Shown here: positions 1 through 64,000 of the stretch, in pieces
How positions within the stretch are numbered: the stretch's first letter is position 1
How the letters are laid out: every line of letters starts with the position of its first letter
Assembly: GCA_903880015.1 (NCBI GenBank)
Contig: CAIRNS010000028.1
Coordinates: forward strand, 66,462-130,461
Direction: 5' to 3'
DNA from: an uncultured Elusimicrobia bacterium
Lineage (GTDB): Bacteria; Elusimicrobiota; Endomicrobiia; Endomicrobiales; CAIRNS01
Length of the DNA stretch: 64,000 nucleotides
Made by a program: the position numbers and the translations under genes
Notes under the pieces: generated by a model
What the model saw: the letters and a program-made list of their open reading frames with translations, nothing else
Databases searched by the model: none
What the model was told of the DNA's origin: nothing

Positions 1-1
1 T

Positions 2-4311: not shown

Positions 4312-4330
4312 CACAAAACCAGGAGCTGAC

Positions 4331-4825: not shown

Positions 4826-5370
4826 AAATTCTCTTTGATTTGTTTCCGGTAATATTATTCTTTATTGCCTTTAAAGTGAAAGGCATTTATGTTGCGACCG
4901 CTGTAGCCATTGCCGCTGCAGTTCTTCAGGTGGTCTATTCATGGGTGCGTTATAAAAAAGTGGACACCATGGCATGGGTTGGCATGGGGGTATTGGTAGT
5001 TTTTGGCGGTTCGACATTACTGTTGCACAACGAGATGTTCATCAAATGGAAGCCGACGATTCTTTACTGGATATTTTCGTTAACTATTTTAATTGGTTAC
5101 GCGGTGATGAAGAAGAATATAATCCGGACACTCATGCACAAACAAATTGTGCTTCCTGAGAATATTTGGACGAAAATGAATCTCGCGTGGGGAATATTTT
5201 TTGCTGTGCTGGGTGCGATAAATCTGGGTGTGGCCTACACGTGCACCACCGCAACATGGGTAAACTTCAAATTGTTCGGTATCATGGGAATCATGCTGGT
5301 ATTTATCGTTTTACAGGCCTTACTGATGGCTCCGTATATCAAAGATAACGCCCCTGCCGCGGAAAAATAA
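4822..5370 (+). CDS. yciB: Intracellular septation protein A family (YciB/IspZ)
   Basis: The N-terminus [18 protein letters not shown] and the five-TM layout are typical of YciB. ATGA overlap with the upstream gene. Confidence 0.7.
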
Positions 5371-5392
5371 TCAACGACAAAGGAGTTCCCCG

Positions 5393-7030
5393 ATGGAACC
5401 ATTGACGAAAACAGCCGCTTGGAAAGCATTGAACGATCATTATCAGGAGATAAAGGCAACGCATCTGCGGGATTTCTTTACCGATAAAACACGTGTTGCA
5501 AAATTGTCTCTGCGTGTTGACGGACTGGGCATGCAGGTCGATTATTCCAAGAACCGCGTTACGGCTGAAACGATGGATATGCTCTGCGATCTTGCCTGGG
5601 CGAGCGGGGTGAAAGAATACGCGCACCGGATGTTCAACGGCGAGAAAATCAACTGGACGGAAAAACGGGCAGTTCTGCATACTGCTCTGCGTAATCGCTC
5701 CAATCGCCCGATAGTGGTTGACGGCAAGGATGTGATGCCGGAAATCAACCGGGTTCTGGAGAAAATGAAGAAGTTTTCAGGCGACCTGCGCTCCGGCGTC
5801 TGGCGCGGGGCGACCGGCGAAAAAATAACCGCCATCGTCAATATCGGCATCGGCGGGTCTGATCTCGGACCAAAAATGGTGTATGAGTCCCTCAAGCATT
5901 ACGCTGACGGGCCGGATGTCTTTTTTGTTTCGAACATTGATGGCGCTGATATGGACGAGACACTGAAAAAACTTAACCCTGCGGTAACCCTGTTCATCGT
6001 TGCCTCAAAAACATTCACGACGCTTGAAACAATCACGAATGCCCGCACCGCCCGCGCATGGCTGGTAAAGAAGCTTGGCGAAAAAGCTGTGCGCAATCAT
6101 TTCGTCGCGTTGTCGACCAACAAACAGAAAGTTGAAGAATTCGGTATCGATGCGGCGAATATGTTTGAGTTCTGGGATTTTGTCGGTGGCCGGTATTCCC
6201 TCTGGTCGGCGATAGGGCTTCCTGTCGCCTGCGCGGTCGGATTCACCCGTTTTGAAGAACTGCTTGACGGCGCGCACGCAATGGATGAGCATTTTTTAAC
6301 CACCGCATTCGATAAGAACCTGCCGGTTATCATGGCACTTCTGGGTATTTGGTACAACAATTTTTTTGATGCGGGAACCTGCGCGGTTTTGCCGTACAGT
6401 CAATATCTCTCCCGTCTGCCGGCGTATCTGCAGCAGGCCGACATGGAATCAAACGGCAAGACTGTTGATCACGAGGGAACCCGGGTCAACTATCAGACTG
6501 GCCCCGTGATTTGGGGTGAACCGGGCACCAACGGTCAACATTCGTTCTATCAGCTTATCCACCAGGGAACAAAACTGATTCCCGCCGACTTCATCGGATT
6601 CATCAATCCGCCCGTACGGGTCGGGGACCATCACGAAAAACTGATGGCGAACTTTTTTGCCCAGCCCGAAGCACTGGCGTTTGGTTTAGAAAAAGAAAAG
6701 GTAATCGAACAACTTAAAGCAGTCGGTGCATCGTCAGAAGACATCGCTTTGCTCGCACCTCATAAGGTCTTCGAGGGCAACAAGCCCACAACCACAATCC
6801 TCATAGATGAACTGACCCCGCGCACAATTGGTTCGCTGATAGCGCTCTATGAACATAAGATCTTCGTTCAGGGTGTCATCTGGCGTCTCAACAGTTTTGA
6901 TCAGTGGGGCGTTCAGCTCGGTAAAGTACTCGCCGATGTCATCCTTCCGGAACTTTCCGGCGGCGGAAAAACACCGCATGATGCTTCCACCGCGTCACTA
7001 ATAGACAGCTACAACACCCGGAAGAAATAG
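5393..7030 (+). CDS. pgi: Glucose-6-phosphate isomerase
   Basis: Full-length PGI signatures are present: [45 protein letters not shown]. Confidence 0.95.
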
Positions 7031-7123
7031 ATTCATATTCTTTCTTTGCATTCGTTTCAATGCCCGTCAAGACAAGCGTGCGCCCTGCCTGCGATCCGAT
7101 ACTATGCCATAAGCGAGGAACCC

Positions 7124-7939
7124 ATGGAAAAACTCTTGAGCATGCCGATAAAGGAAGTGTTGACGCAGTATCCGAATGTTGGCAAAATTCTTCAGGACTA
7201 TGGTGTCGGTTGCGTGTCCTGCGGGGTGGGTACATGTCTGCTTAAAGATGTTGTACATATACATTCTTTGTCAAAAGATGAAGATGCCGAGCTTATGTAC
7301 CGGATCGAAAAAGAGGTCTATCCGGATAGAGATATCGTTCCGCCTGCGGCCCCCGCGGCAAAAAAAGGAGCGCCCCAAAGCAGAAAATCTTCACGCCCGA
7401 TAAAATGTCTTGTGGATGAGCATGTCACCATCATGAAACTGGTTAACCTGATACCTGTCCTGGCAGAGACAACCGATATTTCAACCGCCGCGGGGAAACA
7501 GCTGATTATGGATGCCGTAGAATTTATCCGCTCGTTCGCGGACACATTCCATCACATGAAGGAAGAGGATATTTTATTTCACTACTGCGATCATCAGTCG
7601 GATATCATACAGGCGATGCTTAAAGATCATGATACGGCAAGAGGGTATATACGAGCGGCTGTCCACGCCCTTGAAATCAACGACAAGGACGGTGTTTCAT
7701 CGAATCTTGTGGCATACGCAAAATTATTGACTGAGCATATCAAGAAGGAAGACGAGATACTCTATCCTTGGATTGACAGGCAGTTAACTCCCTTGCAGAC
7801 CGCGGAGATGTTCTTGAAATTTAACGAAGTAGAGGGAAAATCAGATGCCGCTGTTGCAAAATGCGTAGCATTTGCCGATACGGCCGGAGAAAAAATAATC
7901 GCACAAAAAGCGGTTGACGGAGAAAGTCATAAAGGATAA
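7124..7939 (+). CDS. Hemerythrin-like metal-binding protein with an N-terminal CxxC redox-disulfide (DUF1858-like) domain
   Basis: ATG at 7124 follows AAGCGAGGAA. The N-terminus reads ILQDYGVGCVSCGVGTC. The C-terminal part has a His/Glu-rich four-helix pattern (HHMKEEDILF, EHIKKEDEILYPW). Confidence 0.55.
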   Translation: MEKLLSMPIKEVLTQYPNVGKILQDYGVGCVSCGVGTCLLKDVVHIHSLSKDEDAELMYRIEKEVYPDRDIVPPAAPAAKKGAPQSRKSSRPIKCLVDEHVTIMKLVNLIPVLAETTDISTAAGKQLIMDAVEFIRSFADTFHHMKEEDILFHYCDHQSDIIQAMLKDHDTARGYIRAAVHALEINDKDGVSSNLVAYAKLLTEHIKKEDEILYPWIDRQLTPLQTAEMFLKFNEVEGKSDAAVAKCVAFADTAGEKIIAQKAVDGESHKG

Positions 7940-7943
7940 CTGA

Positions 7944-8750
7944 CTACGGTGTGTCAGGATGCAGATGCGGATGGGAATGAACGGTGTCTTTATGTTCATG
8001 ACGGTGGATGTGCAGGAGATTGTTTTTCTTTAGAAATTCGTCGTCGGCCAAGACGGTTTCTGGTCTGCCTGAGCTGATTATTTTCCTGCTTTTGTCGAAT
8101 AAATATACGGTGTCGGAAATCTCGCTGATGATGTGCAAGTCGTGCGTTGCGGTGATGATCGTTTTTCCCTGACTGCTCGCCAGCGTTATCAAATCGACAA
8201 TATGCCGCGTGGTCAGGGGGTCGAGTCCCGCCGTAGGCTCGTCGAGCAATATGATATCAGGGTCAATCGCCCATACCGCTGCGATAGCTGCTTTTCTCTT
8301 TTCGCCGATGCTCAGCTGATGCGGTGCGCGGTCCAGCAGGTCGGTAATTTCAAGCAATTCAGCAAGCACGGTTAAGCGCTTGAGTGTTTCTTCCATAGAT
8401 ACCCCCAATTGCAGAGGGCCGAAAACAATATCTTCTTTTACAGTCGGGCAAAACAACTGCACATCAGGGTTCTGAAAAACAAAGCCGATTTTTTTCCGAA
8501 AGAATTGTGCATACTTTTCATCCTGCAACGCATCCTCAGTCAATTCCCTGCCAAATGCCTCTATCCTGCCTGCATCGGGGAAAATCAATCCGTCCAGTAA
8601 GGATAAAAGCGTTGATTTTCCTGTTCCGTTGGCACCGATGACAGCGATTTTCTCGCCTGCCGTAACAGTAAGATCTATCCCGCACAGAGCAGGGAATTTC
8701 CCCGCATGCGCATAATGAACATTCCGTAATGCAAAGATTGTGTTGCTCAT
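7944..8750 (-). CDS. cbiO: ECF transporter ATPase (cobalt/nickel type, CbiO) with a His-rich C-terminal tail
   Basis: Walker A GANGTGKST, signature LSIGEKRK, Walker B ILLDEP. The tail reads HIHRHEHKDTVHSHPHLHPD. Confidence 0.85.
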   Translation of the reverse strand: MSNTIFALRNVHYAHAGKFPALCGIDLTVTAGEKIAVIGANGTGKSTLLSLLDGLIFPDAGRIEAFGRELTEDALQDEKYAQFFRKKIGFVFQNPDVQLFCPTVKEDIVFGPLQLGVSMEETLKRLTVLAELLEITDLLDRAPHQLSIGEKRKAAIAAVWAIDPDIILLDEPTAGLDPLTTRHIVDLITLASSQGKTIITATHDLHIISEISDTVYLFDKSRKIISSGRPETVLADDEFLKKNNLLHIHRHEHKDTVHSHPHLHPDTP

Positions 8751-49293: not shown

Positions 49294-49392
49294 TTGTCCG
49301 TTCCAAGCATCTCATGATAGCTTGCCCTGTTGGCGGGCCGACAGGATCCATGAAAAGTTGTAAATTTATCAGGATTGTGTGAAAAGGAAACT

Positions 49393-49629
49393 ATGAAAAT
49401 GAATATTGGTTCAGCTGACCGCGCCATTCGCCTCATCGTCGCGATAATTCTGGTTGGATTGTATTTCGGCGGCGTCATCACCGGCAAGTTCGGTCTTGCC
49501 CTGGTAATCCTTGGCGCGGGTCTCGGTATCACCGCCCTTGTCAGATTTTGCGGATTGTATACACTTTTGGGCATCAACACCTGCTGCAGCGGCGAAAAAG
49601 ACAGCTGCTGCTGCGGTGGTAAGGAATAG
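49393..49629 (+). CDS. DUF2892 (YgaP-like) small membrane protein with a Cys-rich tail
   Basis: NIGSADRAIR...RFCGLY pattern. The tail reads NTCCSGEKDSCCCGG. Confidence 0.55.
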   Translation: MKMNIGSADRAIRLIVAIILVGLYFGGVITGKFGLALVILGAGLGITALVRFCGLYTLLGINTCCSGEKDSCCCGGKE

Positions 49630-49672
49630 TTCAAAAAGCATTTTTCTACAATAGTATAGTCAGTGTCATCAT

Positions 49673-49744
49673 TCCGTCGTAGCTCAACGGTGGAGCATCC
49701 CGCTGTTAACGGGAGGGTTGTAGGTTCGAGTCCTACCGACGGAG
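49673..49744 (+). tRNA. tRNA-Asn (anticodon GTT), no encoded CCA
   Basis: Acceptor TCCGTCG/CGACGGA, anticodon loop CTGTTAA, GGTTCGAGTCC. Confidence 0.9.
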
Positions 49745-49793
49745 TATTTTTAGATTGTCGTGTTCAGACAATTACTGGTTTTGTCTGTCAATA

Positions 49794-51062: not shown

Positions 51063-51656
51063 ATGAAAACGACAATAAAAACTAACCGGTGCCGCTGTCA
51101 GTGGGTGGATTTGAGTAAACCTGATTATGTTGCCTATCACGATACTGAATGGGGTGTTCCTGTCCGTGACGATAGGCTTATATTTGAATTTTTGACCTTG
51201 GAATCCGCGCAGGCAGGGTTGAGCTGGTATACGGTTCTCAAAAAACGGGAGAATTATCGTGCGGCGTTTGCAAATTTTGAGCCGGAGAAAGTAGCTCGCT
51301 TCAGCCAGAAAAAAATCGAGCTGTTGCTGTGCAATCCCGGAATCATTAGAAATAAATTGAAAATAAACGCCGCAGTCATTAACGCGCAGAAATTTCTTGA
51401 AGTACAGGCGCGGTTCGGGACTTTTTCAAAGTATATATGGCAGTTTGTCGGAGGCAGTCCGATACAGCACACTATACGGACACTCGCTGATTTTCCGGCA
51501 ACAACCAAAGAATCGGATGCGTTAAGCAAGGATTTGAAGAGCAGAGGATTTAAATTTACTGGTTCCACCATATGCTACGCGCACATGCAGGCAACGGGGA
51601 TGGTAAATGACCATGCCCGTGATTGTTTCAGAAGAAAAGAAGTAATGGGAAAATAG
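51063..51656 (+). CDS. tag: DNA-3-methyladenine glycosylase I
   Basis: C.W...P.Y..YHD.EWG, FEFLTLE.AQAGLSW and ICYAHMQATGMVNDH. Confidence 0.9.
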   Translation: MKTTIKTNRCRCQWVDLSKPDYVAYHDTEWGVPVRDDRLIFEFLTLESAQAGLSWYTVLKKRENYRAAFANFEPEKVARFSQKKIELLLCNPGIIRNKLKINAAVINAQKFLEVQARFGTFSKYIWQFVGGSPIQHTIRTLADFPATTKESDALSKDLKSRGFKFTGSTICYAHMQATGMVNDHARDCFRRKEVMGK

Positions 51657-51782
51657 CGCCATGTAACAAGTACAAAGAATCAGTTATGAGAACACCAATC
51701 TCTGGCAAACTGCAAGAGTGGGGTCTGTCATGGCGATACAAGCGTGCAGTTTCATAAGGCGACTGGGATAAATGAGGGAAGA

Positions 51783-52628
51783 ATGAAGAATACTTCTAAA
51801 AAAATCAACATCTTTGAAGTTGGTATCGCATATAAAAAAGCAGGGGAATATAGGAAAGCGTTGGTGTGTTTTAAAAAGGCTGTGAGTATTAAGGGATGTG
51901 AAGATGATGCCAATATCAATATCATGGAAATGCTGCTTAAGACGGAGGCATATGAAAAAGCATTGCAATTTATCGCGCATGTAAAAATAAGCCATCAATA
52001 CAATTATCAAAGATATGTATTCCAAGCGCAATGCAGTCAAGCGCTTGGAAAATGCAGTGAGGCAATCAAGTACTCTATTAAGGCAGGGATGTGTGCTAAG
52101 GAGGCAAGCGATGCTCAATCTGTCAAGAAAAGCCTTGCACATCTATATGCGCAGCAAAAAGACTTCAAGAGAGCCCTTGGGTTTATAGAAAGCTTGGAGA
52201 AATACGATGAAATAGATGATGACATGTTGCTACTCAAGGGAATATGCCTTAAAGAGCAGGGGAATTATGATGCATCCTTGAAATGTCTTGCTAAAGTAGT
52301 GGAAGGAAAAAGACGTGATATGGCAGGGGAAATAATGGGGGATATTTATGTAAGACAAAACAAATTTTCACTAGGAAAAGCTCATTATATTAAACTTCTT
52401 GAGAATGCTAATGAAAAAGAACAATCATATCTGTTCAACTATAATCTGGCAAGATTGTATGTAGCCAACAATGATTATATCGGGGGAAGGCCATTTCTGC
52501 TGAAATGGTATCATCATGTCGACGAAAAGAAAAATATATTTCTAAAAAATAAATTACTAAATATAATTGAGTATGCTGATAAGAAAACAATACTCAAATC
52601 CAAGCCCATAGAAATGACTTTACAATAA
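51783..52628 (+). CDS. TPR-repeat protein (probably the N-terminal part of a TPR-radical SAM fusion)
   Basis: ATG follows GAGGGAAG. Repeated A..Y.KAL.....G/A 34-aa periodicity. The sequence is AT-rich. Confidence 0.55.
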   Translation: MKNTSKKINIFEVGIAYKKAGEYRKALVCFKKAVSIKGCEDDANINIMEMLLKTEAYEKALQFIAHVKISHQYNYQRYVFQAQCSQALGKCSEAIKYSIKAGMCAKEASDAQSVKKSLAHLYAQQKDFKRALGFIESLEKYDEIDDDMLLLKGICLKEQGNYDASLKCLAKVVEGKRRDMAGEIMGDIYVRQNKFSLGKAHYIKLLENANEKEQSYLFNYNLARLYVANNDYIGGRPFLLKWYHHVDEKKNIFLKNKLLNIIEYADKKTILKSKPIEMTLQ

Positions 52629-53623
52629 CATCGAAATGTAATTTAAAATGTGCGATGTGTGATACGCATAAAAATAATTTTGATCTCGGAAAGACAACGG
52701 CGGATGAAATTGAAAAACTGTTTCCCTATTTAGAAGGCATATCTTGGCTTGGCGGGGAAGTGTTCCTTGCGAAACGATTTGACCATTTGTTTGAACAGGC
52801 GCTGCGTCACAAAAATATTCGAACCAATGAGATTATTACCAATGGGCTGCTCTTAACCGAGAAAACAATCGATAAAATCGTTGCGAACAAAGTAAAATTG
52901 ACCGTTTCTGTGGATGGTGTAACAAAAAATATATATGAAGGGATTCGTAAAGGTGGAAATTTTGAAGTATTGCAAAAAAAACTGCATATGATTTCAGAAG
53001 CGTATTCCCGCACACATACTGAAGCGTATGTGTTGCAGCTTAATCATGTAGTGCTTAAAAGTAATTATAAAGATTTAATTCGATTGCCGGATTTTGCGCG
53101 CAAATATGGGTTTAATAGAATTAGTTTGATGAGATGTATCCCAAGCCCAGTCGCAAATAATGAATTGATAGAGAATGATCTTGCAATAATGGGATATATT
53201 AAAGGCATAATGCCGCAGGTGCTTGATAGAGCGCAGAAAAATGGGATCACCATGTTGCTTGACCGTTTTTATGGCAACATGGCTTTCAATAATGGTAAAA
53301 AAAGCAGTGTTCAACAATCTCAATATTTAGACAGTGGATGCGATACAAACAGCGCCGAAAGTGTTTATGGGAAAAGAGAGGATTATTGTAGTGCTCCCTG
53401 GAAGAGATTTACTCTTTTAACCGATGGATTTGTATATCCGGATTGTGATTGTGTTGTGCCCGCCGGTGGTTTTATTAAACAATCAATTGCAGAGACATGG
53501 AATAGCAGCATTATGCAGCAATACCGGGCAACATTAGGCAGGAAAAGTGGTAACAGTTTATGCAATAAAGAATGTATGAAGAATAAATACTACGCTAATA
53601 ATGTGCAAAAATACATATTGTAA
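52619..53623 (+). CDS. Radical SAM enzyme with a SPASM/twitch-like C-terminal Cys domain; no usable start codon of its own
   Basis: FTITSKCNLKCAMC (Cys codons at 52637, 52649, 52658) lies upstream of the tracked ATG at 52655. Also WLGGEVFL, ITNGLLL, and CSAPW...GFVYPDCDC...CNKEC. Confidence 0.7.
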   Translation, partial: FTITSKCNLKCAMCDTHKNNFDLGKTTADEIEKLFPYLEGISWLGGEVFLAKRFDHLFEQALRHKNIRTNEIITNGLLLTEKTIDKIVANKVKLTVSVDGVTKNIYEGIRKGGNFEVLQKKLHMISEAYSRTHTEAYVLQLNHVVLKSNYKDLIRLPDFARKYGFNRISLMRCIPSPVANNELIENDLAIMGYIKGIMPQVLDRAQKNGITMLLDRFYGNMAFNNGKKSSVQQSQYLDSGCDTNSAESVYGKREDYCSAPWKRFTLLTDGFVYPDCDCVVPAGGFIKQSIAETWNSSIMQQYRATLGRKSGNSLCNKECMKNKYYANNVQKYIL

Positions 53624-53661
53624 AGTGCTTATAAAGCGATTCCGAAAGAGTGGTGTATTGT

Positions 53662-55089
53662 ATGTCACTGTATAGTGCACTACCGGGGAAGCAATGGCGG
53701 AGAAGTATTCCTGCCCGGGGCGTAGTTTTTTGTTGCGGAGTCATCTTTGCAATAGTAATGGTTGAACTGTTTATGCGTGCGGGATGGTTTTCAATCTTTG
53801 CTCTGAGGGAATACGGGAATCATGTTTCCGGTGTTCAGTCAGGGGCATATAAGATTTTGTGTCTGGGTGACTCCATGTCCGCATTTACCTACACCCCCAT
53901 CTTGGAACGCATATTAAATGAGAAAAGTTCCGGTCTAAAGTTTGCAGTTATCAATAAGGCAATCCCCGCGACGACCTCTACCGTATTGTCGGCACATGCG
54001 CAAGAATACATAGAGCAGTATAACCCCCAAATGGTCATTGCAATGATGGGGCATAATGATTACCAGCCGTTACTCTTTATGCCATTGATGGGAGACCCCC
54101 AGCGTAGCCACTGGATGCTCATTGAGTGCTTAAAATTTATACTAAAAAAACATCCTCCTACAGAACTTCCGGCCACAAAAGTGATGTCCACGGATAAAGG
54201 TGCTGAAGCAAGCAAAAGAGATGACCGGTTAGAAGCTCTCCGCCGGGTGATAGAAGAAGATCCGCGCAATATGCAGGCATATACGGAATTGGGGTGCTAC
54301 TATCTTGGCATCCGCAAAGACGATGCGGCAATTGACTTGTTTGCCCGTGCCATAAGCATGAATCCGGGAAGCGTTGATTTCTATATAAAGATTGCTGATA
54401 TTTACTTCAATCAGAAGCGTTACGCGGAAGCGCTGCGTATGCTTAAAGCGGCTCCAGTAGGACATGAAAATTATTGTTTTGTTTTGAGGGACATGGCCCG
54501 AGTGTATGCCGTCTTGAAGGACACACCCAGTCAGGTTGCTGCATTGGAGAAAGCCGTTCGCTCAGGTGGTGATCCGGTAACTCAGCAGATGTTGTTGCAG
54601 TTCTATTTTGACGCAGGAGATACGCGGCGTGCCATTGAGCTCGAAAAAAAAATATCTGATCAAAACGATCCGACAGGAAATGCGCTGGGCTGTTTGTCCC
54701 ATGTCTATCTTTTGCGGAAAGAAATTAAGATTGCAAAGCAATACGCCGATAAGGCGACTGCGGTGCGGAGTGTCAATCTCAATAAAACTACCCGTGCCAA
54801 TTATTGCCGATTAGCCCGATTGACTCGTGACAGGAACATTCAATTGGTTTGCATACAGTATCCGCTGAGAAGCGTCAAACCGTTAAAAGAAATGTTGGAT
54901 GGATTTGATAATATCCTTTTTGTTGACAACGAAAATATATTTTGGGATGCAGTTGCGGCGAAAGGGTACGCTGCTTATTTTATAGATAATTTTGCCGGTG
55001 ATTTTGGCCATTGCACTTCCCTGGGCTATGAAATGATGGCAGCCAACATAGCTGATAATATCCTTACCGCGATAGATATTAAACATTGA
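53662..55089 (+). CDS. Membrane-anchored SGNH/GDSL-like hydrolase with a TPR array inserted between catalytic blocks
   Basis: N-terminal TM segment, block I LCLGDSMS, block III MMGHNDY, about 200 aa of TPR, then block V DFGHCT. Confidence 0.55.
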   Translation: MSLYSALPGKQWRRSIPARGVVFCCGVIFAIVMVELFMRAGWFSIFALREYGNHVSGVQSGAYKILCLGDSMSAFTYTPILERILNEKSSGLKFAVINKAIPATTSTVLSAHAQEYIEQYNPQMVIAMMGHNDYQPLLFMPLMGDPQRSHWMLIECLKFILKKHPPTELPATKVMSTDKGAEASKRDDRLEALRRVIEEDPRNMQAYTELGCYYLGIRKDDAAIDLFARAISMNPGSVDFYIKIADIYFNQKRYAEALRMLKAAPVGHENYCFVLRDMARVYAVLKDTPSQVAALEKAVRSGGDPVTQQMLLQFYFDAGDTRRAIELEKKISDQNDPTGNALGCLSHVYLLRKEIKIAKQYADKATAVRSVNLNKTTRANYCRLARLTRDRNIQLVCIQYPLRSVKPLKEMLDGFDNILFVDNENIFWDAVAAKGYAAYFIDNFAGDFGHCTSLGYEMMAANIADNILTAIDIKH

Positions 55090-55204
55090 CAGCCAATCAA
55101 TGGATGGTTGGCCGGTATTGCAAACAATGTTTACATATAATAAAAGCGGGGAATAATAATAGTGGCAAAGTGTCTTTTTAGAATAGTCCGGCGGGGATGG
55201 GTAA

Positions 55205-58200
55205 TTATGCGGCTTCAAGTATTGCGCGGGTTAGGCGGACATCGGCTGGCTGGTTGCGCTTGCGGTTGATGGTTGTTTTGAGTCGGGGGTCTGCAAACAG
55301 GACGATAAGGGCCAGCGAGATTGCCGTTGCGTTGCCGTTCTTGAATGCCTTTGCTTTTTGATGAATCATTTGTGATACTTCCTCGGCCATCATGGTGTCG
55401 GGAACTTCAATTTTCGCGCTTTCAAAGTTCAGCGAATCAATTCCTCCCACGGTCATCATTTCTATAAACATCCGCTCCAGTTCAGGTGAAGCCAGTCCAT
55501 CTCTTTTGCCTCTGCTTGCCAGCAGATACCGTGCAGCGAATGATTTAAGAAATGATTCGCGGTCCTCGGTGCGCGCTGCATGCAGTTTCGCTGATTCAAT
55601 CAAATCCCGGTTGGCGTCTATCGCATCGAAATTCCCGGCAAGTATGTTTTTTAACGCTTCTTTCAGCTTTGGTTCATCCGCCGGCGCTTCAAACGACCCT
55701 TCCGCAATATCCATAGTAAACGCTACCTGATGTTCGTACTCCTTCTTTTCGCGGGGGGATGTGACGAACAGCTCAAACAAGTTAATCCCCATTATCGCTA
55801 TTTCCGTTATATCCCGCCGTCCTGTCACCAGCTTTGTGGCTTTCTGGAAATTCTCGTTCTCGAAAATAACGATGCAGGTCGGGTCCATTTTTTGCACGAC
55901 ACTCTCCAACTGCGCACCGGTCGTGTCTTTGTTCACCAATATCTTTATCACGGACCACGGTTGGGGTTGTACCGTAGCGTCTTGCGGTTCCGCCAGATCT
56001 ATCACTGAATAATTACGCATTTCGGTACTTGCTTTTATTCCCCTGCCGGCAACCCATGCGCCTGTCAATATTTCAGCTTGTATCGCGGCAATTTTTTGGG
56101 TAAGTTCTTGACTGCTGCAAATAATGCCGTCAGCTCCGGTGAGGTTCAATAGTTTAATAGCGTCGTCCGCATTGTCACCCGCGTACATAAGATAGGTTTT
56201 TGCGCCTTTGTTGTTCAAAGTTTGCACCTGCGCGCGCAAGGTATTTACGGTTGTGTCCAAAGCATTAACTGCCTTGAGAACGATGGGATGATTCAGGCGG
56301 GGCATGGTCGAAAAAGCGTCTGTCCATTCGCGTTCGACTGCCACATTTACCCGGCGCGCTTCATGCCGGGCACGCAGTACTCGCTGCGCCTGGCCATAAT
56401 TGATAGTGCGCGTACTCTCAGGCATGGTGATTTCCTCGTTCTGCCACTGAAGAACTGTGCCTGTCCCTTCGCTGCGCAAAACCATCAGTCCGCCGTCCAT
56501 GAGGCCCTTTTCACCGATGGTTTGTAATAGATTGATAAAATTGCGAGACCCCGTGACACTGCCACTGCCCTGCAGTAAAGCAAGGATATATGACGCCTCA
56601 AATTCCTTCCCTGCCTGCACATCTATATATATTTTTACCTTCCCGTTTTCGTTAACCATATAGGTGTCGCTAATCCCGCAGGCGCTGGCTTTTGAAAGAA
56701 TTTCTTTTCTTTTTTGAACATCGCTTGGCAACGCAGTGATAATGATTTGAGCGCCGGAGGGGAGATTGTCCTCTTTTGATACCCCGACAATGGTCGGTAT
56801 ATCCGCATTAGTATCATACGCGACATGGATAACCCCTGTAGTTATAAAGCTGACAGCCGCGCCGCCGGCAACGGTTGCCAGCGCTGCAAGGACCGTGATA
56901 ATCGCTCCATACCCCAGCGCAAGAGGCATGAGCCACCAGCCCAGGGCCGCAACAGTCGCTATGCCGGTTAGCCATCCAACCGTGTTCATGGCTGTTATGG
57001 CAGCACCCCGCGCAGTATTTGCACTGCTGTGCGCCCGGTCAAAAACCACCGGATTTTTCATCATCGGCACAAACTCGTGCAAATGCACCTCAAGAAGCGC
57101 CAGCCACTGTGGCCACCCAGCAGAAATTCGTTGATAATAGCGCCCCGCATTTTCCGGCAATACGGCGGCAGCAACGGTGGCATCATTTCCTGTATTTCCA
57201 GGTTTATCCATCGCAGATAATCTTTGTGCTATGAGAGGAATCGCCGCAAGGAAAATAGTAAGTTTTTCCTTTAAGCGAACTTTGAACACCGACTCAAAAG
57301 AGTTAGCGGCGAAATCCTCATACTTGATCGCAGAGCCTGTGTATATAGATCCCGCCAGTGAATATCCCTCCAGAAGTTTATCGATAAAATTACCGAAATT
57401 GTCTATCTTGGTTTCATATATGACCGAAAATATAGTGTTCAAGAATCGGGCCCATTGAAAGGCATGAGACGGGTAGAGGTTCATTATAAGGGCTAAGGTT
57501 GCTCGTGCTGCCCAATGAGATTCGGTAACTATAAAATGATGTATCCGGGCGTTATATAACCGTGCTGCGTAGATATTGAAATCCATGTACTCGTGGACAT
57601 TCCAGCCAAACATATCCGCAAATGCGAGGGCGGTGCAATCAGCGGCAAATTCATGCACGGTTTCTGTAAGCAAATTGTAGCCGTGATATCCTTTCTGATT
57701 CAGAACATCGTGCGCGATTTCATGAGCCACTACTTCAAAAAATATTCTATTGCTCCCTTCTCTTCTCAATAACCCGCCTATGATGAAATTAGAATAGGCA
57801 TTATCTAAGTAGTCCCTCACTATCGCTGTACTTGCCTTTGCCGCGAGGCGCAATACTGTTTCCGGATTATGTAATTGCGGGACCCCGGGTATAGTAGACG
57901 AGGCCATAATCGTGGCCATTATATGCACTTTTGCTTCCTCGTCCTGCAGCCAAAGGGTATTGAAGAGTGAATCTCTCCACCCCTCTGCTGTAACCAGATT
58001 TTGAATATACTGTTTTGACGGTCCTGCCAATGCGCTGCTGAGCTCAATAAATTCTTTATCCAATGCTTTGCGCTGTTTGTCTCCTTCCGCCGGCGGCAAA
58101 GGAGAATTAAACTTTATATTTGTTTGTTCGTTGATTGTGTAGTCCGCGAAATAACTTAATGCGTAAAGTTTGATGCTAATGTGCATGTTCGGGCTACGCA

Positions 58201-59647
58201 AGATGCGTCTTAATACCTCAGGTCTTTTTTTACTGTAATATATGACCAGATAGCCCAAGCGTGGATTAATAAGTCCGTTGGTCAGCAGATATTTTTCAAT
58301 CTCCTCAGGGGAAGCTTTCTCCGTAAGCACGCGCCTCGCTTTTGCGGCTTCATCCGTATTCACGGCCGTTTTTGTGAGGAGTAACTCCAGCACCTGGGGG
58401 TCATCAATCATTGCGGTAATGCGGGTTACCAGCTCGGCCGACACATCGTTGCCGTATGTATTGTTATCAATAGATTTTACAATTTCCGACCTCAAGCGAT
58501 TCGCGGTATCAGGCGCTTGCGTTTCTAACTTTACGATAATATCCATCATATTCATGATACAGGTATTTACCAGATCCATCTTACCATCATACTGGTCTGT
58601 AAAATTATAGTTTGCGAGGGGTTTTAAGATGCCGGCTTCCCGGTCCAATATAGTTTTTAGTTCATCGTAAACTTTCAGCAAAAGTGCCGGATTCGTGATG
58701 TTATCATAGACCATGTAGGGCATCAAATCATTCACTGTCTGCGGGTTTTGAGCGGAAAGATTAGCTGAGGTAATTCTTTGCAATACGAAATCGGCTTCGC
58801 CCGCTTCAATAATCCTCTTAATCACCCAGATAACCGTTGGAACGCGCAGAGAATTAGTCCCCAGGATAGTAATCAGTGAATCTATGGTTTTGGTTACTAA
58901 CTCTTGCGAATGACCATCATTGTTGTTTTTTAATAATTGTATTATTGCAACAAGCTCGCTCACCGGTTGATCGTTTTGTTTTGCTTTATTATTAATCGCA
59001 TCGCGATATATATTGCCTGACATTGGCACCAAGCTCTCAATAAAGCTTGTCAGGTCTCCGTTAGTTTGCTCAAGTGTTGCGAGCGAGATGACAACAGTGG
59101 CTTTTCTGGAAACGGTCAGCGGGGCTTTAACCGTAGTCAACCCGAAAGTCCCGAAGAGCAGGTTGTAGATAAAATGGGCAGCAACATTGGCGAGATAGGC
59201 GGCGAGCAGGGGGTTGATGCCGAAGGGATGGAGAAATCCGGCGGATACGGTGACGGCTAAGATAATCGCGGCCCCTATCGCGCGGAACGCAAATTGTTTC
59301 GGTGTGGACCCATCTTTGCCGGAAAACAGCAGAAAGGAATGCGCAATCCAGTCAATGATGCTTATTGGCGCTACGATAATTTCCGCGGCAATGGTCAAGC
59401 CCGGATGTTCGATGAGGCCCAACTCTGTTTCGTACCATTGGGGGTCAAGGTTGTGCGTCAGGCCCAACCCCTGCGCCACCCAGGCAACGAAGCGATAGAT
59501 AAAAGGAAGCGTGAGGGCGGTCGTTGCTGTTGCGTGTGTCGGGTCAGGATTTGTATGTATCATATTCGGCACAATTTCATGCAAGAGCTTCTCTATCTCG
59601 GCAAGCAACTTCGGCCAGCCGGAGGAAATCCGTTGTTGATAGCGCAT
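55205..59647 (-). CDS. Giant (1480 aa) multi-domain membrane protein with an HExxH metallopeptidase-like motif; function unknown
   Basis: Uninterrupted 4.4-kb ORF with two hydrophobic multi-helix blocks. HEIAH at 57710-57724. Residues ~190-812 are paralogous to the C-terminus of the upstream ORF. Confidence 0.7.
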   Translation of the reverse strand: MRYQQRISSGWPKLLAEIEKLLHEIVPNMIHTNPDPTHATATTALTLPFIYRFVAWVAQGLGLTHNLDPQWYETELGLIEHPGLTIAAEIIVAPISIIDWIAHSFLLFSGKDGSTPKQFAFRAIGAAIILAVTVSAGFLHPFGINPLLAAYLANVAAHFIYNLLFGTFGLTTVKAPLTVSRKATVVISLATLEQTNGDLTSFIESLVPMSGNIYRDAINNKAKQNDQPVSELVAIIQLLKNNNDGHSQELVTKTIDSLITILGTNSLRVPTVIWVIKRIIEAGEADFVLQRITSANLSAQNPQTVNDLMPYMVYDNITNPALLLKVYDELKTILDREAGILKPLANYNFTDQYDGKMDLVNTCIMNMMDIIVKLETQAPDTANRLRSEIVKSIDNNTYGNDVSAELVTRITAMIDDPQVLELLLTKTAVNTDEAAKARRVLTEKASPEEIEKYLLTNGLINPRLGYLVIYYSKKRPEVLRRILRSPNMHISIKLYALSYFADYTINEQTNIKFNSPLPPAEGDKQRKALDKEFIELSSALAGPSKQYIQNLVTAEGWRDSLFNTLWLQDEEAKVHIMATIMASSTIPGVPQLHNPETVLRLAAKASTAIVRDYLDNAYSNFIIGGLLRREGSNRIFFEVVAHEIAHDVLNQKGYHGYNLLTETVHEFAADCTALAFADMFGWNVHEYMDFNIYAARLYNARIHHFIVTESHWAARATLALIMNLYPSHAFQWARFLNTIFSVIYETKIDNFGNFIDKLLEGYSLAGSIYTGSAIKYEDFAANSFESVFKVRLKEKLTIFLAAIPLIAQRLSAMDKPGNTGNDATVAAAVLPENAGRYYQRISAGWPQWLALLEVHLHEFVPMMKNPVVFDRAHSSANTARGAAITAMNTVGWLTGIATVAALGWWLMPLALGYGAIITVLAALATVAGGAAVSFITTGVIHVAYDTNADIPTIVGVSKEDNLPSGAQIIITALPSDVQKRKEILSKASACGISDTYMVNENGKVKIYIDVQAGKEFEASYILALLQGSGSVTGSRNFINLLQTIGEKGLMDGGLMVLRSEGTGTVLQWQNEEITMPESTRTINYGQAQRVLRARHEARRVNVAVEREWTDAFSTMPRLNHPIVLKAVNALDTTVNTLRAQVQTLNNKGAKTYLMYAGDNADDAIKLLNLTGADGIICSSQELTQKIAAIQAEILTGAWVAGRGIKASTEMRNYSVIDLAEPQDATVQPQPWSVIKILVNKDTTGAQLESVVQKMDPTCIVIFENENFQKATKLVTGRRDITEIAIMGINLFELFVTSPREKKEYEHQVAFTMDIAEGSFEAPADEPKLKEALKNILAGNFDAIDANRDLIESAKLHAARTEDRESFLKSFAARYLLASRGKRDGLASPELERMFIEMMTVGGIDSLNFESAKIEVPDTMMAEEVSQMIHQKAKAFKNGNATAISLALIVLFADPRLKTTINRKRNQPADVRLTRAILEAA

Positions 59648-59680
59648 CTCATCGTCAGAAAATACAAAGGCAACGGTAGT

Positions 59681-62600
59681 TTATTTTGGAGAAACTATTT
59701 GAATAATATTATTAAGATAAGTTGACAATCTATCTGGACTTAGGAATACATAAAGATTTTTCTTCAACATGCCCTGAATATCAGCATAATTCATTGGCAC
59801 ATTACCCGTGTATATGGATGGTGTAAATGAATACGCATTAAGGAGTTCAAAGATGAATGTACTGAAATCAACTATCTGTTTTTTATATATCAACGAAAAT
59901 ATGCTGTTTAATAGGCGGGCCCATCGAAGGTTTTTGAGTAGAAAGTGTTTGATTATCTGGGCCATAGCTGCTCTTGCTGCATTATGCTCCTCTTCAACTT
60001 GATAATTATAGTGCTGAGCTATAGCCAAAGTATTTTCATAGTTCCATAACTCCATGAACTCATTGACATCCCAGCCAAACATGTCCGCAAATGCAAAAGC
60101 GGCGCACTCAGCGGTGAATTCATGTATTGATTTTGCCAGTAAATTATCACTGCGATATCCCTGTTGATACAGGACGCTGTGGGCGATTTCATGAGCCAGT
60201 ACTTCGAAAAATGTTCTATTATTCCCTTTTCTCATCAGGACTCCTCCGATGACGAATCCAGAATTTGCATTGCTCCAATAGTCCCTCACTATTGCCTTGC
60301 TTGCCTTTGCCGCGAGCTGCAATACTGTTTTCGGGTCGCTGAATTGCGGGACTTCGGGCATTGTGGATGAGACTATGAGCGCGGCCATTATGTATGCTTT
60401 CATCGCTTCGTCCTGCAGCCATATATTGTTGAAAAGCCAATCTCTCCACCCCTCAGTTTTTTCAAGATTCACAATATACTGCTTTGATGGTCCTGAAAAA
60501 TCGTTCCTGTACTGCATGAACTCATCATCCCAAGCTTTATATTTAATGTTTTTATCTGTTTGGTTCAAAGTGTCATCATGCTCAATTTTTCCTTTTTCGT
60601 CGACCGCATAGCGCGCAAAATAACTTAATGCGTAAAGCTTGATGCTTATGTGCATATCAGGACTTTGTAAGATGAGTCTTAATACATCAGGTTTGTTTTT
60701 GCTGTAATTTATGACCAGAAAGCCCAAGCGTGGATTAGTCAGTCCCTTGGTTTTCAGATAATTCACAATAGTTTTCGGTGCAGCGGTATTATTAAGTACG
60801 CCTCGCGCTTTTGCGGCCTCTCTCGTATCAACGGCTGTCTTGGTGAGGAGTAACTCGAGGACATGGGGGTCATCAATCATTGCGGTTAGGTGGGTTATCA
60901 GCTCAGCCGACACATCGTCGCCGTATGTATTGTTATCAATAGATTGCACAATCTCTAACTTCAAGCGATTGGCGGTATCAGGCGATTGCGCTTCTAACTT
61001 TACGATAATATCCATCATAACCGCGATGCAATTATTTATCAGATTCCAATCTTGTTCTTGTTTGTTTCCTATGCCGGCTTCTCGCTCTAGTATGGTTTCT
61101 AGTTTACCGTAAATCGTAAGCAGAATTTCTGAATTTTGATCGTTCCTAGTATAAATCCAATACATCAGTTCATACAGTGTTTGTGGATTTTGAGTGTACA
61201 GATACGTTGTGCTAATTCCCTGCAATATACTATCGCCTGCTCCCGCCTGAATTAAATTGAGCATAGCCCACCTAGCCGTTGCAACATGTGCATTATCAGG
61301 CGCGATCATTTTCATCAGAGAATCAATGGTTTTGGCTAATAATCCTTTAGAATAAATATCATTTTGGGCTTTCAATGATTTGATTATTTCATAAAGCTCG
61401 TTTAACGGGTTAGTATTTTGTTTAAAATTTGCTGTCTGCTTCTCAATGCTTTCGATGAATTTTGTCAGATCTCCGTTGGCATCCCAAAGGGCATCAAGGG
61501 TTATGGAAGCAGGGGCTTGCCCGTGTTGTGTCATCGGGGCGCGGAAATTATGGTTGAACAGGGTGCGGAAAGCAGGGGGGAGATACGAATTAATGGCAAA
61601 GAATATTGCATCGAGTATGTTGATTGTGGAATGAACCATGGCGCTGACGATGTTTGCGACTCCCGGGATGCCGGGCAGTTGCAGGATGGTGAATGGGGCT
61701 GACAAGATTACCGTTATCCATGTTCCCCTGCGTACCCAGTCGTTTGCTTGAGCATCTATATAGTAGTGCTCAGCTACAAATGTATTAATCCGGTCATGTA
61801 AGTCTTTTCTCAGTGGTGCGTTAAATATCGCCTTCAGCGCGAGACGAGCGATTTCAGTTAATTCTATGGATTCCACTATCGGAGCGAAGAATATATTATC
61901 AATCTCCGTGACCGCGGCACCGGCAATTCCGTTCTCATTGTTTTTGTTTAGTATTCCTCTGCCTTCCAGCCAGTGCTGAAGGAATCGGCTGGGTAAAATG
62001 CGAAATAATATTTTATTTTGTTTATTAATCGAAGATGTGAACTGTCCAATCACTCGGGGATTTAACGGCACTTGTTTTATAAGATTATTACTAAATAGCA
62101 CCTTATTTGATGATGATGCGGGCTGGGTCAAAAACTGGGCAACGATGCGCGCGCTATCATAGAAAGGGCGAAACAGATTTTTTAGTGCTATGAAGGCGAG
62201 GAGAAATGCGACATATGCGTGCGAACCGAATGCTTCGGGAACATATAGTTCGTTGTTCAATCCAAGGGTCAGCATAACCTTATCGAATGCCATTTGAGCG
62301 CTAAAAATCAAAGTTTTCCTGAACACGGATACGCGGTGTGTCAGTGGTGCGGTCCAAGTGTAATCGGGCAATATCTTCTCGAAGAGATTACGATCAGTTG
62401 TGATAAAGTATGTAAAATCCTTCACCGCCGCTGATTTTGAATTAATCCACATCCTTCCCGTGATTGCACGGAAAGTACTCCTAAAATATTCATCTTGTTG
62501 CTCTTTTGCTGTAGTGCCGGTCGACGATTGATGTATTTCGCTTATCAATTGTTTCATGTCAAGGCTCTGCATTAATGATTTTAGCGACCTAAACAAGGGC

Positions 62601-64000
62601 CCGATACCTTCTCTCTGCCAGAAGTTCCGTAGCGATCTCCATATTTTCCCGCTAAGTCCGGTAGGGAGGGGGCTCATATCCTGCAGAAATTTCGCTGCGG
62701 CATCATTCGGAGTCCATAATTTTTCGTCTTCGAGCCAGGTGCTGTTCGGTCTCTGTAATGCCTCGCCCACGGCTTTCAGTGCCAGAGGACAGCGTTCAAA
62801 ATCAATGTTTCCTTCAGCATCAGTGAGCAGTGCCTCTACGATTGCATACCCAACACAATGGACTGGAGCATCGAACGCCAATGTGCCGTGCGCTGTGGCC
62901 CCTTTGAATTCGTAAATCGCATTCGCCAGAATACGGTCAGCATCCTCAAGTGAGAATTCCTTCAGCGCGTTTTCGTGAAGTGCTCTCAAGAAGTAAAGTT
63001 TCTTTTGCTCGGTATCAAGTTTTGAGTGATGGGGATTAGCAGTATAGTCAAGGAATTGTCTGCCTATAAAAGCAAGCACCTTCAGGTCTTTCGCCAAGGC
63101 GATTCTTTCATCTTCGCTATTTGTTTGCCACTGTACATACGTGTCGGACAACTCCGCGACAGCTTCCCTTACGCTTGCTGACATTGGTTTGTCGTAAAGC
63201 ATCTGATGGATTCGATGCCCCAACTCATGTGCAATGATTCTCACCGTATCTCCAATCACGGCATGGTCATCCATCACCAAATTGATGCCTCGGTTATTCG
63301 CAAAGGATTGCCAGTCCCCACGCTCGATATCGATCATGGTCGCGCGTATGATTTGATTGATAGAATGTATATTCATCCCCATCACGACCCCGAGAATCAG
63401 TGCTATCGGTCTTAAAAGCACGCGGGACATAAGTATCAACCGAACCATCGCCTTCGATTCTGCAATAGCAGCCGCATGGCGCGTTTCTGATTCTTTATCG
63501 GTACCGCCTTCACGTAGAGCATCCAAAGCTTTGCGGCGTAGATCATTGTCAAAATCGCCGAAAGAGGTTATTACTTCTTTCATCGCTTGTGTATGTGAGA
63601 AGATGTTAAGCATTCTATTCTGCAATTCTTTTTCACGAATGAGTTTGTGGAGTTCATTGTCCTTTTGTGCAAAATCATAAGCGTCTTGCTGCAATTGTTC
63701 CGTCTCCAGAACCAGTGCCATTACCGATTGGTTTTGCTCAGGCCGGGATTCACGCAATTCGCCGGCAACTATGTAGACCTCGCGGGTGCCTATATCGGAA
63801 AAACTTTTCATTCTTTTGAGTCGCCGGACAAACGCGTTCGAAACTTCCTTGTTCGTCTCTTTCTGTAATGCCTCTTTCAATTCATTGTCGGTTTTCGCAC
63901 CGAGAGAAGCTTTTGCCAGATCATATACACTACGATGAGCTCGACTTCCCACAACATACGCTCGTATGCCACGGATAACCCCTCTCTCAACCACCGGGGA
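59681..64000 (-). CDS. Giant (>1437 aa) membrane protein with two HExxH motifs; 5' end outside the window; function unknown
   Basis: The ORF is open to the window edge. HELGH at 63215-63229 (after a TM helix, M48/M56-like context) and HEIAH at 60179-60193. Confidence 0.7.
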   Translation of the reverse strand, partial: SPVVERGVIRGIRAYVVGSRAHRSVYDLAKASLGAKTDNELKEALQKETNKEVSNAFVRRLKRMKSFSDIGTREVYIVAGELRESRPEQNQSVMALVLETEQLQQDAYDFAQKDNELHKLIREKELQNRMLNIFSHTQAMKEVITSFGDFDNDLRRKALDALREGGTDKESETRHAAAIAESKAMVRLILMSRVLLRPIALILGVVMGMNIHSINQIIRATMIDIERGDWQSFANNRGINLVMDDHAVIGDTVRIIAHELGHRIHQMLYDKPMSASVREAVAELSDTYVQWQTNSEDERIALAKDLKVLAFIGRQFLDYTANPHHSKLDTEQKKLYFLRALHENALKEFSLEDADRILANAIYEFKGATAHGTLAFDAPVHCVGYAIVEALLTDAEGNIDFERCPLALKAVGEALQRPNSTWLEDEKLWTPNDAAAKFLQDMSPLPTGLSGKIWRSLRNFWQREGIGPLFRSLKSLMQSLDMKQLISEIHQSSTGTTAKEQQDEYFRSTFRAITGRMWINSKSAAVKDFTYFITTDRNLFEKILPDYTWTAPLTHRVSVFRKTLIFSAQMAFDKVMLTLGLNNELYVPEAFGSHAYVAFLLAFIALKNLFRPFYDSARIVAQFLTQPASSSNKVLFSNNLIKQVPLNPRVIGQFTSSINKQNKILFRILPSRFLQHWLEGRGILNKNNENGIAGAAVTEIDNIFFAPIVESIELTEIARLALKAIFNAPLRKDLHDRINTFVAEHYYIDAQANDWVRRGTWITVILSAPFTILQLPGIPGVANIVSAMVHSTINILDAIFFAINSYLPPAFRTLFNHNFRAPMTQHGQAPASITLDALWDANGDLTKFIESIEKQTANFKQNTNPLNELYEIIKSLKAQNDIYSKGLLAKTIDSLMKMIAPDNAHVATARWAMLNLIQAGAGDSILQGISTTYLYTQNPQTLYELMYWIYTRNDQNSEILLTIYGKLETILEREAGIGNKQEQDWNLINNCIAVMMDIIVKLEAQSPDTANRLKLEIVQSIDNNTYGDDVSAELITHLTAMIDDPHVLELLLTKTAVDTREAAKARGVLNNTAAPKTIVNYLKTKGLTNPRLGFLVINYSKNKPDVLRLILQSPDMHISIKLYALSYFARYAVDEKGKIEHDDTLNQTDKNIKYKAWDDEFMQYRNDFSGPSKQYIVNLEKTEGWRDWLFNNIWLQDEAMKAYIMAALIVSSTMPEVPQFSDPKTVLQLAAKASKAIVRDYWSNANSGFVIGGVLMRKGNNRTFFEVLAHEIAHSVLYQQGYRSDNLLAKSIHEFTAECAAFAFADMFGWDVNEFMELWNYENTLAIAQHYNYQVEEEHNAARAAMAQIIKHFLLKNLRWARLLNSIFSLIYKKQIVDFSTFIFELLNAYSFTPSIYTGNVPMNYADIQGMLKKNLYVFLSPDRLSTYLNNIIQIVSPK

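Follow-up and report, generated by a model that had tools for sequence, protein, structure and literature searches.

We examined a 64,000-nucleotide stretch of DNA from an uncultured Elusimicrobia bacterium (assembly GCA_903880015.1, contig CAIRNS010000028.1, positions 66,462 to 130,461; hereafter the window), in which a tetratricopeptide-repeat (TPR) protein and the catalytic part of a radical S-adenosylmethionine (SAM) enzyme are encoded one after the other in different reading frames. Intact relatives encode both parts as one 613-aa TPR / radical SAM / SPASM-like protein starting at ATG 51783 and reading ...KPIEMTLTITSKCNLKCAMC across the junction. From comparison of these sequences, a real deletion has probably removed one base from the window (AA to A at 52622), in an accessory gene that is single-copy and low in guanine-plus-cytosine (GC) content. 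The window would thus carry a young null allele, or pseudogene, that occurs beside intact alleles.

One base separates the split gene from its intact relatives

The three cysteines of the radical SAM signature, CNLKCAMC, are encoded on the forward strand in frame 2, with codons at 52637, 52649 and 52658. This frame is open from 52583, directly after a TAA stop at 52580-82, and its translation is ENNTQIQAHRNDFTITSKCNLKCAMCD. The earliest ATG in the frame, at 52655, specifies the methionine within CAMC, and a scan of frame 2 from 52583 to 52654 found no ATG, GTG or TTG, bearing out the observation of a first-pass annotation of this DNA that the cysteine motif has no in-frame start upstream. The only near-cognate codons ahead of the motif in frame 2 are ATC at 52598 and ATA at 52625. 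Read in frame 2, the forward strand from 52580 to 52660 is taa gaa aac aat act caa atc caa gcc cat aga aat gac ttt aca ata aca tcg aaa tgt aat tta aaa tgt gcg atg tgt. The 0-frame codons of 52581-52628 are AAG AAA ACA ATA CTC AAA TCC AAG CCC ATA GAA ATG ACT TTA CAA TAA, and here the TPR open reading frame (ORF) ends. It begins in frame 0 at GTG 51744 or ATG 51783, the latter in agreement with the called 281-aa and 613-aa products, and runs to 52628 with the C-terminus ...KSKPIEMTLQ and a TAA stop at 52626-28, as had also been annotated.

A protein search with a repaired model of the gene retrieved P0001, a protein of 613 aa with 99% identity across 98% of the query, which reads ...KTILKSKPIEMTLTITSKCNLKCAMCD... 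at the site. Three intact orthologues of 613 aa and 99% identity (P0001, P0070 and P0071), along with the partial P0069, all read PIEMTLTITSKC across it, and in each of the three the TPR and radical SAM parts form one ORF. The proposal that the window holds a single frameshifted TPR / radical SAM / SPASM gene, restorable by one base, is therefore upheld by the orthologue alignment that the first-pass annotation had called for. Its finer details need correction. The missing base had been placed, by way of example, in the AAA at 52612-14, and the fused protein had been predicted to be about 620 aa long with the junction peptide PIENDFTITSKC (...PIENDFTITS); alignment instead puts the missing base at the AA at 52622, the real junction is KPIEMTLTITSKC, a few residues away from the prediction, and the intact protein from ATG 51783 has 613 aa.

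At the nucleotide level, the window has a single A at 52622 (TTTACAA) where relatives have AA (TTTAACAA), so that the aligned site reads TTTACAATAACA in the window and TTTAACAATAACA in the intact alleles. Three intact contigs were aligned over longer distances. L001, the contig that encodes P0001, is 99.586% identical to window positions 51354-57396 over 6044 bp, with 24 mismatches and one gap; L006 (NCBI GCA_026388035.1, named as an Elusimicrobiota metagenome-assembled genome, MAG) is 99.92% identical over 13,884 bp, and L007 (from the Logan assembly of SRR20698641) matches at 99.92% identity along 9,753 bp, each likewise with one gap. In all three the gap is the same, an extra A at 52622. 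The mismatches of L001 are unevenly spread, with fourteen of the 24 falling in the first ~90 bp of that contig (L001 4-92, window 51357-51445, inside the tag gene), a cluster that could be a contig-end artefact or the edge of a recombination tract.

Protein homology places the break at the same point. When frame 2 was searched against 1.84 billion representative proteins, homology to 266 family clusters began at residues 12-15, which correspond to window positions 52616-52625, in independent agreement with the break mapped to 52622. The frame-2 stretch from 52583 to 52621 is accordingly out-of-frame sequence, and has no homology.

The deletion recurs under several accessions and on several haplotypes

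A one-base indel is a classic type of consensus error, and the intact gene is present in near-identical contigs, so the organism might truly have AA at the site and an intact 613-aa gene. The source contig also has a unique nonsense change in a neighboring giant gene, found in no other assembly, which could hint at lower consensus quality. However, the same deletion occurs under four other accessions from differing pipelines, each contig aligning to the window without a gap: L002 (ENA ERZ27245846, a k141-named contig), L003 (JGI 3300009175), L004 (a Logan re-assembly of SRR5581337) and L005 (JGI 3300009502). Moreover, the site consists of a dinucleotide rather than a long homopolymer, and the 14 kb aligned to L006 hold no second gap. 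Both truncated products, the 281-aa TPR stub and the 322-aa ORF, are recorded exactly in the public protein collection; the 322-aa product is read on seven contigs, and the exact product is also recorded in ERZ1426631.

The deletion-bearing contigs also differ from one another at single-nucleotide polymorphisms (SNPs) and comprise at least four SNP haplotypes. At positions 55336, 55350 and 55468, L003 shares T, C and G with the intact L006. The corresponding bases are C, T and G in L002 and L004 but C, T and A in both L005 and the window; L005 additionally carries 52773C. These haplotypes form a stepwise series from the intact background, from L006 to L003, then to L002 and L004, then to L005 and the window. 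Recurrence of the lesion across pipelines, accessions and haplotypes indicates a heritable allele, and we regard a consensus error as highly improbable.

Several points weigh against a heritable null allele all the same. The support consists of assembled contigs, with distinct accessions and haplotypes as the only warrant of sample independence, and divergence from the intact alleles is only ~0.1%. The radical SAM half shows no further stops or indels that would mark secondary decay, and it is from the reading frame that loss of function is predicted. Persistence of the deletion on several haplotypes leaves room for some residual or altered function, which the split gene may retain. Finally, judged from the codons at the site (ACU UUA CAA), a -1 slip after UUA would restore the wild-type peptide, and the allele may be leaky at a low level.

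The break falls within the catalytic domain

We compared the site of the deletion with the domain organization of the intact protein. Besides the TPR superhelix, the 5' part of the broken gene encodes ~25 residues at the start of the conserved radical SAM domain (NKLLNIIEYADKKTILKSKPIEMTL). In an eight-sequence alignment, homologues made up of that domain alone begin about 30 aa before the first cysteine and share the segment N..LN..E....K..L.SKP..L...LT..CNL.C.MC. The invariant residues N256, N260, E263, L271 and S273 lie upstream of the break, while C286, C290 and C293 lie downstream. In an AlphaFold2 model of the intact protein (mean predicted local distance difference test score, pLDDT, 81.7; predicted template-modeling score, pTM, 0.74) the break coincides with the strand formed by residues 277-281 (LTITS). 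Sequence and model together place the predicted cut within the catalytic domain, in strand beta-1, and not at the boundary between the TPR and radical SAM parts.

Translation from ATG 51783 would stop at the premature TAA at 52626-28, brought into frame by the frameshift, to give a 281-aa TPR stub. The catalytic part would have no start upstream of the cluster cysteines, and a product initiated at ATG 52655 would lose two of the three ligands. A polypeptide with all three cluster cysteines is thus absent from the predicted products of the window, whereas the intact allele encodes one. As no usable start serves the radical SAM half, the enzyme is most likely null, that is, not made, in this lineage.

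Frameshifting and gene fission are poorly supported as rescues

Of the three causes that the first-pass annotation had offered, a real mutation or pseudogene is favored; the evidence speaks against both consensus error and programmed frameshifting. Under the latter, ribosomes would slip by -1 after UUA (52620-22), re-read the A as part of ACA, and make the full-length wild-type protein, the shift being programmed or merely tolerated. A -1 shift at that point does regenerate ...MTLTITSKC, identical to the intact protein, the 0-frame stop lies two codons downstream of the slip point, and the deletion allele persists on several haplotypes. Yet the 0 frame lacks an X XXY YYZ heptamer over 52583-52628, and the downstream 111 nucleotides fold no better than shuffled sequence, with a minimum free energy of -11.9 kcal/mol where the shuffles average -13.1 (z = 0.43; 131/200 shuffles fold at least as well). 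Slippage by tRNA-Leu(UUA) should be rare, as it would have to re-pair on UUU with a wobble mismatch, and no homopolymer is long enough for slippage during transcription. The shift is not conserved either: the gene is a single in-frame ORF in the closest relatives, at 99.6-99.9% DNA identity, as well as in distant homologues. Given the lack of a slippery heptamer, the lack of downstream structure and the in-frame relatives, programmed frameshifting appears very unlikely. Transcriptional slippage and phase variation were both rejected, the site having no homopolymer or repeat tract.

A second way to rescue function would be fission of the gene into a stand-alone TPR protein and a radical SAM enzyme translated from a non-canonical start, either ATC 52598 or ATA 52625. 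Such an outcome would parallel the family members that have only a radical SAM domain. A long N-terminal extension is missing from about 40% of family representatives, suggesting that the catalytic domain can function when no TPR part is fused to it. Frame 2 is open for 18 codons ahead of the first cysteine, and a start at ATC 52598 would keep strand beta-1 as FTITSKC. However, stand-alone homologues retain the ~30-aa N-terminal segment with N256, N260, E263, L271 and S273, which here is left on the TPR stub. Bacterial initiation at ATC or ATA is very rare, the 20 bases upstream of either candidate start are A/T-rich with no GGAGG-like motif, and the product from the first ATG (52655) is without two of the three cluster cysteines. 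We give fission into two working proteins little credence, and a null allele arising by deletion better accounts for what is seen.

The intact protein is a TPR-fused radical SAM enzyme with a cysteine-rich C-terminal domain

In the intact protein, a TPR superhelix (about residues 10-250) precedes a radical SAM core that bears the CxxxCxxC and GGE motifs, and a C-terminal SPASM/twitch-like domain with five cysteines makes up the third part. Pfam scores on the repaired protein rule out that the CxxxCxxC motif occurs by chance, with Radical_SAM (PF04055) scoring 56.9 bits against a Pfam cut-off of 29.5 (E = 3.9e-15) and SPASM (PF13186) scoring 26.2 bits against a cut-off of 21.5 over residues 549-611 of the 626-aa repaired model. 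C286, C290 and C293 are invariant in 58 homologues, and G324, G325 and E326 are invariant in both the 58- and the 8-sequence alignments. The GGE motif contacts SAM in the radical SAM superfamily. In the AlphaFold2 model, residues 277-492 form alternating strands and helices that match radical SAM structures in Foldseek searches, the best matches being SkfB, SuiB, TigE, ChlB, BlsE, CteB, anSME, DesII, MoaA and viperin. A sequence search of the PDB with the full alignment was dominated by TPR proteins, and with the catalytic half alone it gave weak matches to the viperin-like 9dfn (7.8e-5) and to SkfB (1.1e-4).

The C-terminal cysteines follow the pattern C-x18-C-x-C ... C-x3-C (C536, C555, C557, C594, C598). 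All five are invariant in eight sequences, and C536, C557, C594 and C598 are conserved at 90% or more in 58. The canonical SPASM domain has a seven-cysteine motif, CX9-15GX4C - gap - CX2CX5CX3C - gap - C, which ligates two auxiliary clusters. With five conserved cysteines and the CX2CX5 part missing, the domain here is better named abbreviated SPASM or twitch-like; on sequence grounds, five cysteines are predicted to suffice for one fully cysteine-ligated auxiliary Fe-S cluster.

Classification of the radical SAM subfamily with hidden Markov models, one of the checks that had been suggested, did not yield an assignment. The run against NCBIfam brought up no family close to its cut-off: all 25 listed families, among them W_rSAM_matur, GeoRSP, N_Twi_rSAM, viperin, MoaA, mycofactocin and the sactipeptide maturases, scored far below theirs. 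Of the features of a RiPP radical SAM maturase, no RRE (PqqD-like leader-binding) domain was found in residues 1-250, where Pfam gives TPR families only and the AlphaFold2 model is all-helical. There is also no adjacent gene for a precursor peptide, the intergenic gaps being 126, 38 and 115 bp; the remark in the first-pass annotation that no precursor-peptide ORF lies nearby is borne out by a lack of small ORFs outside coding genes between 51600 and 55300.

By analogy with SPASM/twitch maturases and with the TPR glycosyltransferases OGT and SPY, we infer that the TPR arm of the intact enzyme would serve to hold a partner, either a protein or a peptide. Reductive cleavage of SAM at the radical SAM core would produce the 5'-deoxyadenosyl radical, which would abstract hydrogen from the bound substrate with assistance from the auxiliary Fe-S cluster.

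A large family that often occurs in tandem arrays

A phmmer search with the catalytic half recovered 266 representative clusters at E <= 1e-30. At least 150 residues precede the radical SAM match in 84 of the best 150 family representatives, by our own count from the table, making the fused architecture the majority form; many matches of the repaired protein carry precomputed TPR Pfam domains beside Radical_SAM. Relatives belong mostly to Elusimicrobiota (Endomicrobiaceae, Elusimicrobiaceae) and to Omnitrophota MAGs, with several loci per genome. Family loci were sought by a genome scan with the eight-sequence alignment A3, and a scan of species-representative genomes with P0001 found no relative.

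The commonest neighbor of a family member is another paralogue. Among 844 ORFs taken from the family loci with their flanking DNA, a single cluster of radical SAM and TPR-radical SAM proteins accounts for 287 and is represented in 73 loci. The contig that carries P0035 (L009, 1-17806, named as Endomicrobiaceae by NCBI) has eleven consecutive radical SAM genes. Another contig (L011, 1-17900) has ten, after which come genes for a TPR protein, a GDSL-TPR protein, two glycosyltransferases (PMT_2) and an asparagine synthase. Many of the radical SAM paralogues in these arrays are TPR-fused. No description of a family member or of such arrays was found in the literature searched. Radical SAM arrays reported from Elusimicrobia next to nitrogenase paralogues are described as B12-binding or HemN_C fusions (bioRxiv 10.1101/765248); a search of that text turned up neither tetratricopeptide nor SPASM, and nothing in it links its arrays to the present family.

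Genomic setting

The gene (51783-53623) has a GC content of 0.364, against 0.491 for the window and 0.43-0.46 for the flanking genes; it is compositionally foreign, consistent with horizontal acquisition. No second radical SAM paralogue is present in the 64-kb window. Features of the locus are listed in Table 1.

Table 1. Coordinates of the split gene, its motifs and its downstream neighbors in the window.
Feature	Position	Strand	Remarks
5' part of the broken gene, 281 aa	51783..52628	+	Frame 0; TPR_19, TPR_1 and TPR_2 above cut-offs
Site of the one-base deletion	52622..52622	+	From alignment; sole gap against L001, L006 and L007
3' part: radical SAM core and Cys-rich C-terminal domain	52622..53623	+	Frame 2; stop at 53621-23
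CxxxCxxC (CNLKCAMC), predicted radical SAM [4Fe-4S] ligands	52637..52660	+	C286, C290 and C293 of the intact protein
GGE motif (G324, G325, E326)	52751..52759	+	Invariant alignment columns
Abbreviated SPASM/twitch-like region, five conserved Cys	53387..53575	+	PF13186, 26.2 bits; C536, C555, C557, C594, C598
Downstream neighbor, 475 aa: SGNH/GDSL hydrolase domain and TPR repeats, hydrophobic N-terminus	53662..55089	+	38 bp from the broken gene
Convergent giant gene, no Pfam domain	55205..63994 (and beyond)	-	3877-3907 aa in relatives; context only

A tRNA-Asn(gtt) lies at 49672-49745, 2 kb upstream of the gene. Collinearity with L006 begins at 49741, close to the 3' end of this tRNA, and the part of L006 upstream of the collinear region (1-7958) holds a type I restriction hsdR gene, a DUF4268 gene and unknown genes, with no tRNA. 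The difference could reflect a strain-variable island at the tRNA or a chimeric MAG contig. Just upstream of the tRNA, 49375-49629 encodes an 84-aa YgaP-like transmembrane protein (PF11127, 4.7e-18) with the Cys-rich C-terminal tail CCSGEKDSCCCGGKE.

The immediate downstream neighbor matches Lipase_GDSL_2 at 25.1 bits, below the cut-off of 32.9, and several TPR models above theirs. Its GDSL/SGNH-like region spans residues ~70-200 and its TPR repeats ~190-375. If the last ~80 residues (…GDFGHCTSLGY…) complete the hydrolase fold, as they may, the TPR block would be an insertion. Relative to L001 and L006, this gene has three changes, all synonymous. Similar SGNH/GDSL-TPR genes stand beside family members in L011, L015 and L036. 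In tblastn searches of 80 family loci, the SGNH-TPR protein was matched in two, and a cluster of six such proteins spans five loci, plus L011; the same searches of the 80 loci found no homologue of the giant protein. We consider a link between the radical SAM gene and its neighbors suggestive at most.

The giant gene is itself interrupted in the window, where a TCA (Ser) codon at 59681-83 is TAA (59682 is T in the window and G in L006). The split products of 1480 aa and 2385 aa are recorded only from the 133,591-bp source contig, and the whole 3877-aa gene is found on four ~23.5-kb contigs; among these, L002 and L003 at least have the frameshift in the radical SAM gene as well. Compared with L006, the giant gene has seven non-synonymous changes, the stop included, to one synonymous. 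Three of the non-synonymous changes (55336, 55350 and 55468), within 133 bp near the C-terminus of the protein, define the haplotype series described above. The protein has an HEIAHD (HExxH) motif, and the gene has an internal repeat of ~1 kb (57579-58582 versus 60048-61053, 76% DNA identity).

A more speculative reading, which we think unlikely, joins these observations. The TPR / radical SAM / twitch-like family, which comprises at least 266 clusters at 50% identity and often occurs in arrays of ten or more paralogues, would be an uncharacterised class of TPR-guided radical enzymes acting on proteins or envelope components. The single copy here would act with the SGNH-TPR protein, perhaps on the ~3,900-aa protein, and the frameshift, the nonsense codon and the non-synonymous excess would result from selection for turning a surface-related system off or varying it, as opposed to random decay.

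Discussion

For annotation, the 281-aa and 322-aa ORFs, which public collections list separately, should be merged and flagged as one frameshifted gene. For biology, the locus probably offers a routine example of a young loss-of-function allele found side by side with intact ones in the natural populations of a bacterium not yet cultured. It is the family, more than the frameshift, that merits follow-up, as a large and unstudied group of TPR-fused SPASM/twitch radical SAM enzymes that form long tandem arrays in candidate phyla.

The closest structural parallels are the SPASM/twitch maturases (SkfB 6efn, SuiB 5v1q, CteB 5why, anSME 4k36-39, ChlB 9gm3, TigE 8vpo, BlsE 7vob and MoaA 1tv7), which share a CxxxCxxC and GGE core followed by a Cys-rich auxiliary-cluster domain. 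The AlphaFold2 model matches them in Foldseek at E values of 8e-11 to 1e-6 with template-modeling scores, normalised by target length, of 0.45-0.65; sequence identity is only 12-18%. Unlike these enzymes, the protein has an N-terminal module of a ~250-aa TPR superhelix, with no Pfam match to a PqqD-type RRE. In contrast to canonical SPASM proteins, it has five conserved cysteines, not seven, and a precursor-peptide gene does not fit the intergenic gaps.

Among the NCBIfam models, TIGR04317 (tungsten cofactor oxidoreductase radical SAM maturase) is the best match to the catalytic half, with 4.6e-19 and 68.7 bits against a cut-off of 380, followed by TIGR04311 (GeoRSP putative metalloenzyme maturase), with 9.8e-17 and 61.1 bits against a cut-off of 400. 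Both matches are confined to the N-terminal half of the models, and no aldehyde:ferredoxin oxidoreductase or other candidate client gene adjoins the locus.

OGT and SPINDLY (SPY) have the same general layout, an N-terminal TPR superhelix followed by a C-terminal catalytic domain, and SPY and OGT structures are among the matches of both Foldseek and the PDB search through the TPR arm. Their catalytic domain is unrelated, being a GT41 glycosyltransferase where the present protein has radical SAM, and it is by analogy with their layout that we propose partner recruitment by the TPR part. The core also resembles prokaryotic viperins, matching PADLOC pVip models at 5e-16 and NCBIfam viperin_w_prok at 2e-14, with viperin structures among the Foldseek matches. 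However, the pVip match is limited to core positions 4-174 of 257 and reaches 53 bits against a cut-off of 180 bits, the Pfam SPASM match lies outside the part that resembles pVip, and other radical SAM families match at least as well. We rejected a role as a defense viperin, PADLOC showing only generic similarity to the pVip core.

As for the lesion, it resembles an ordinary frameshift pseudogene or null allele in every main respect: a single-base deletion, intact orthologues at more than 99.9% DNA identity, a premature stop and no alternative start. The sole oddity by comparison is its presence on several haplotypes, which indicates that the allele is not brand new.

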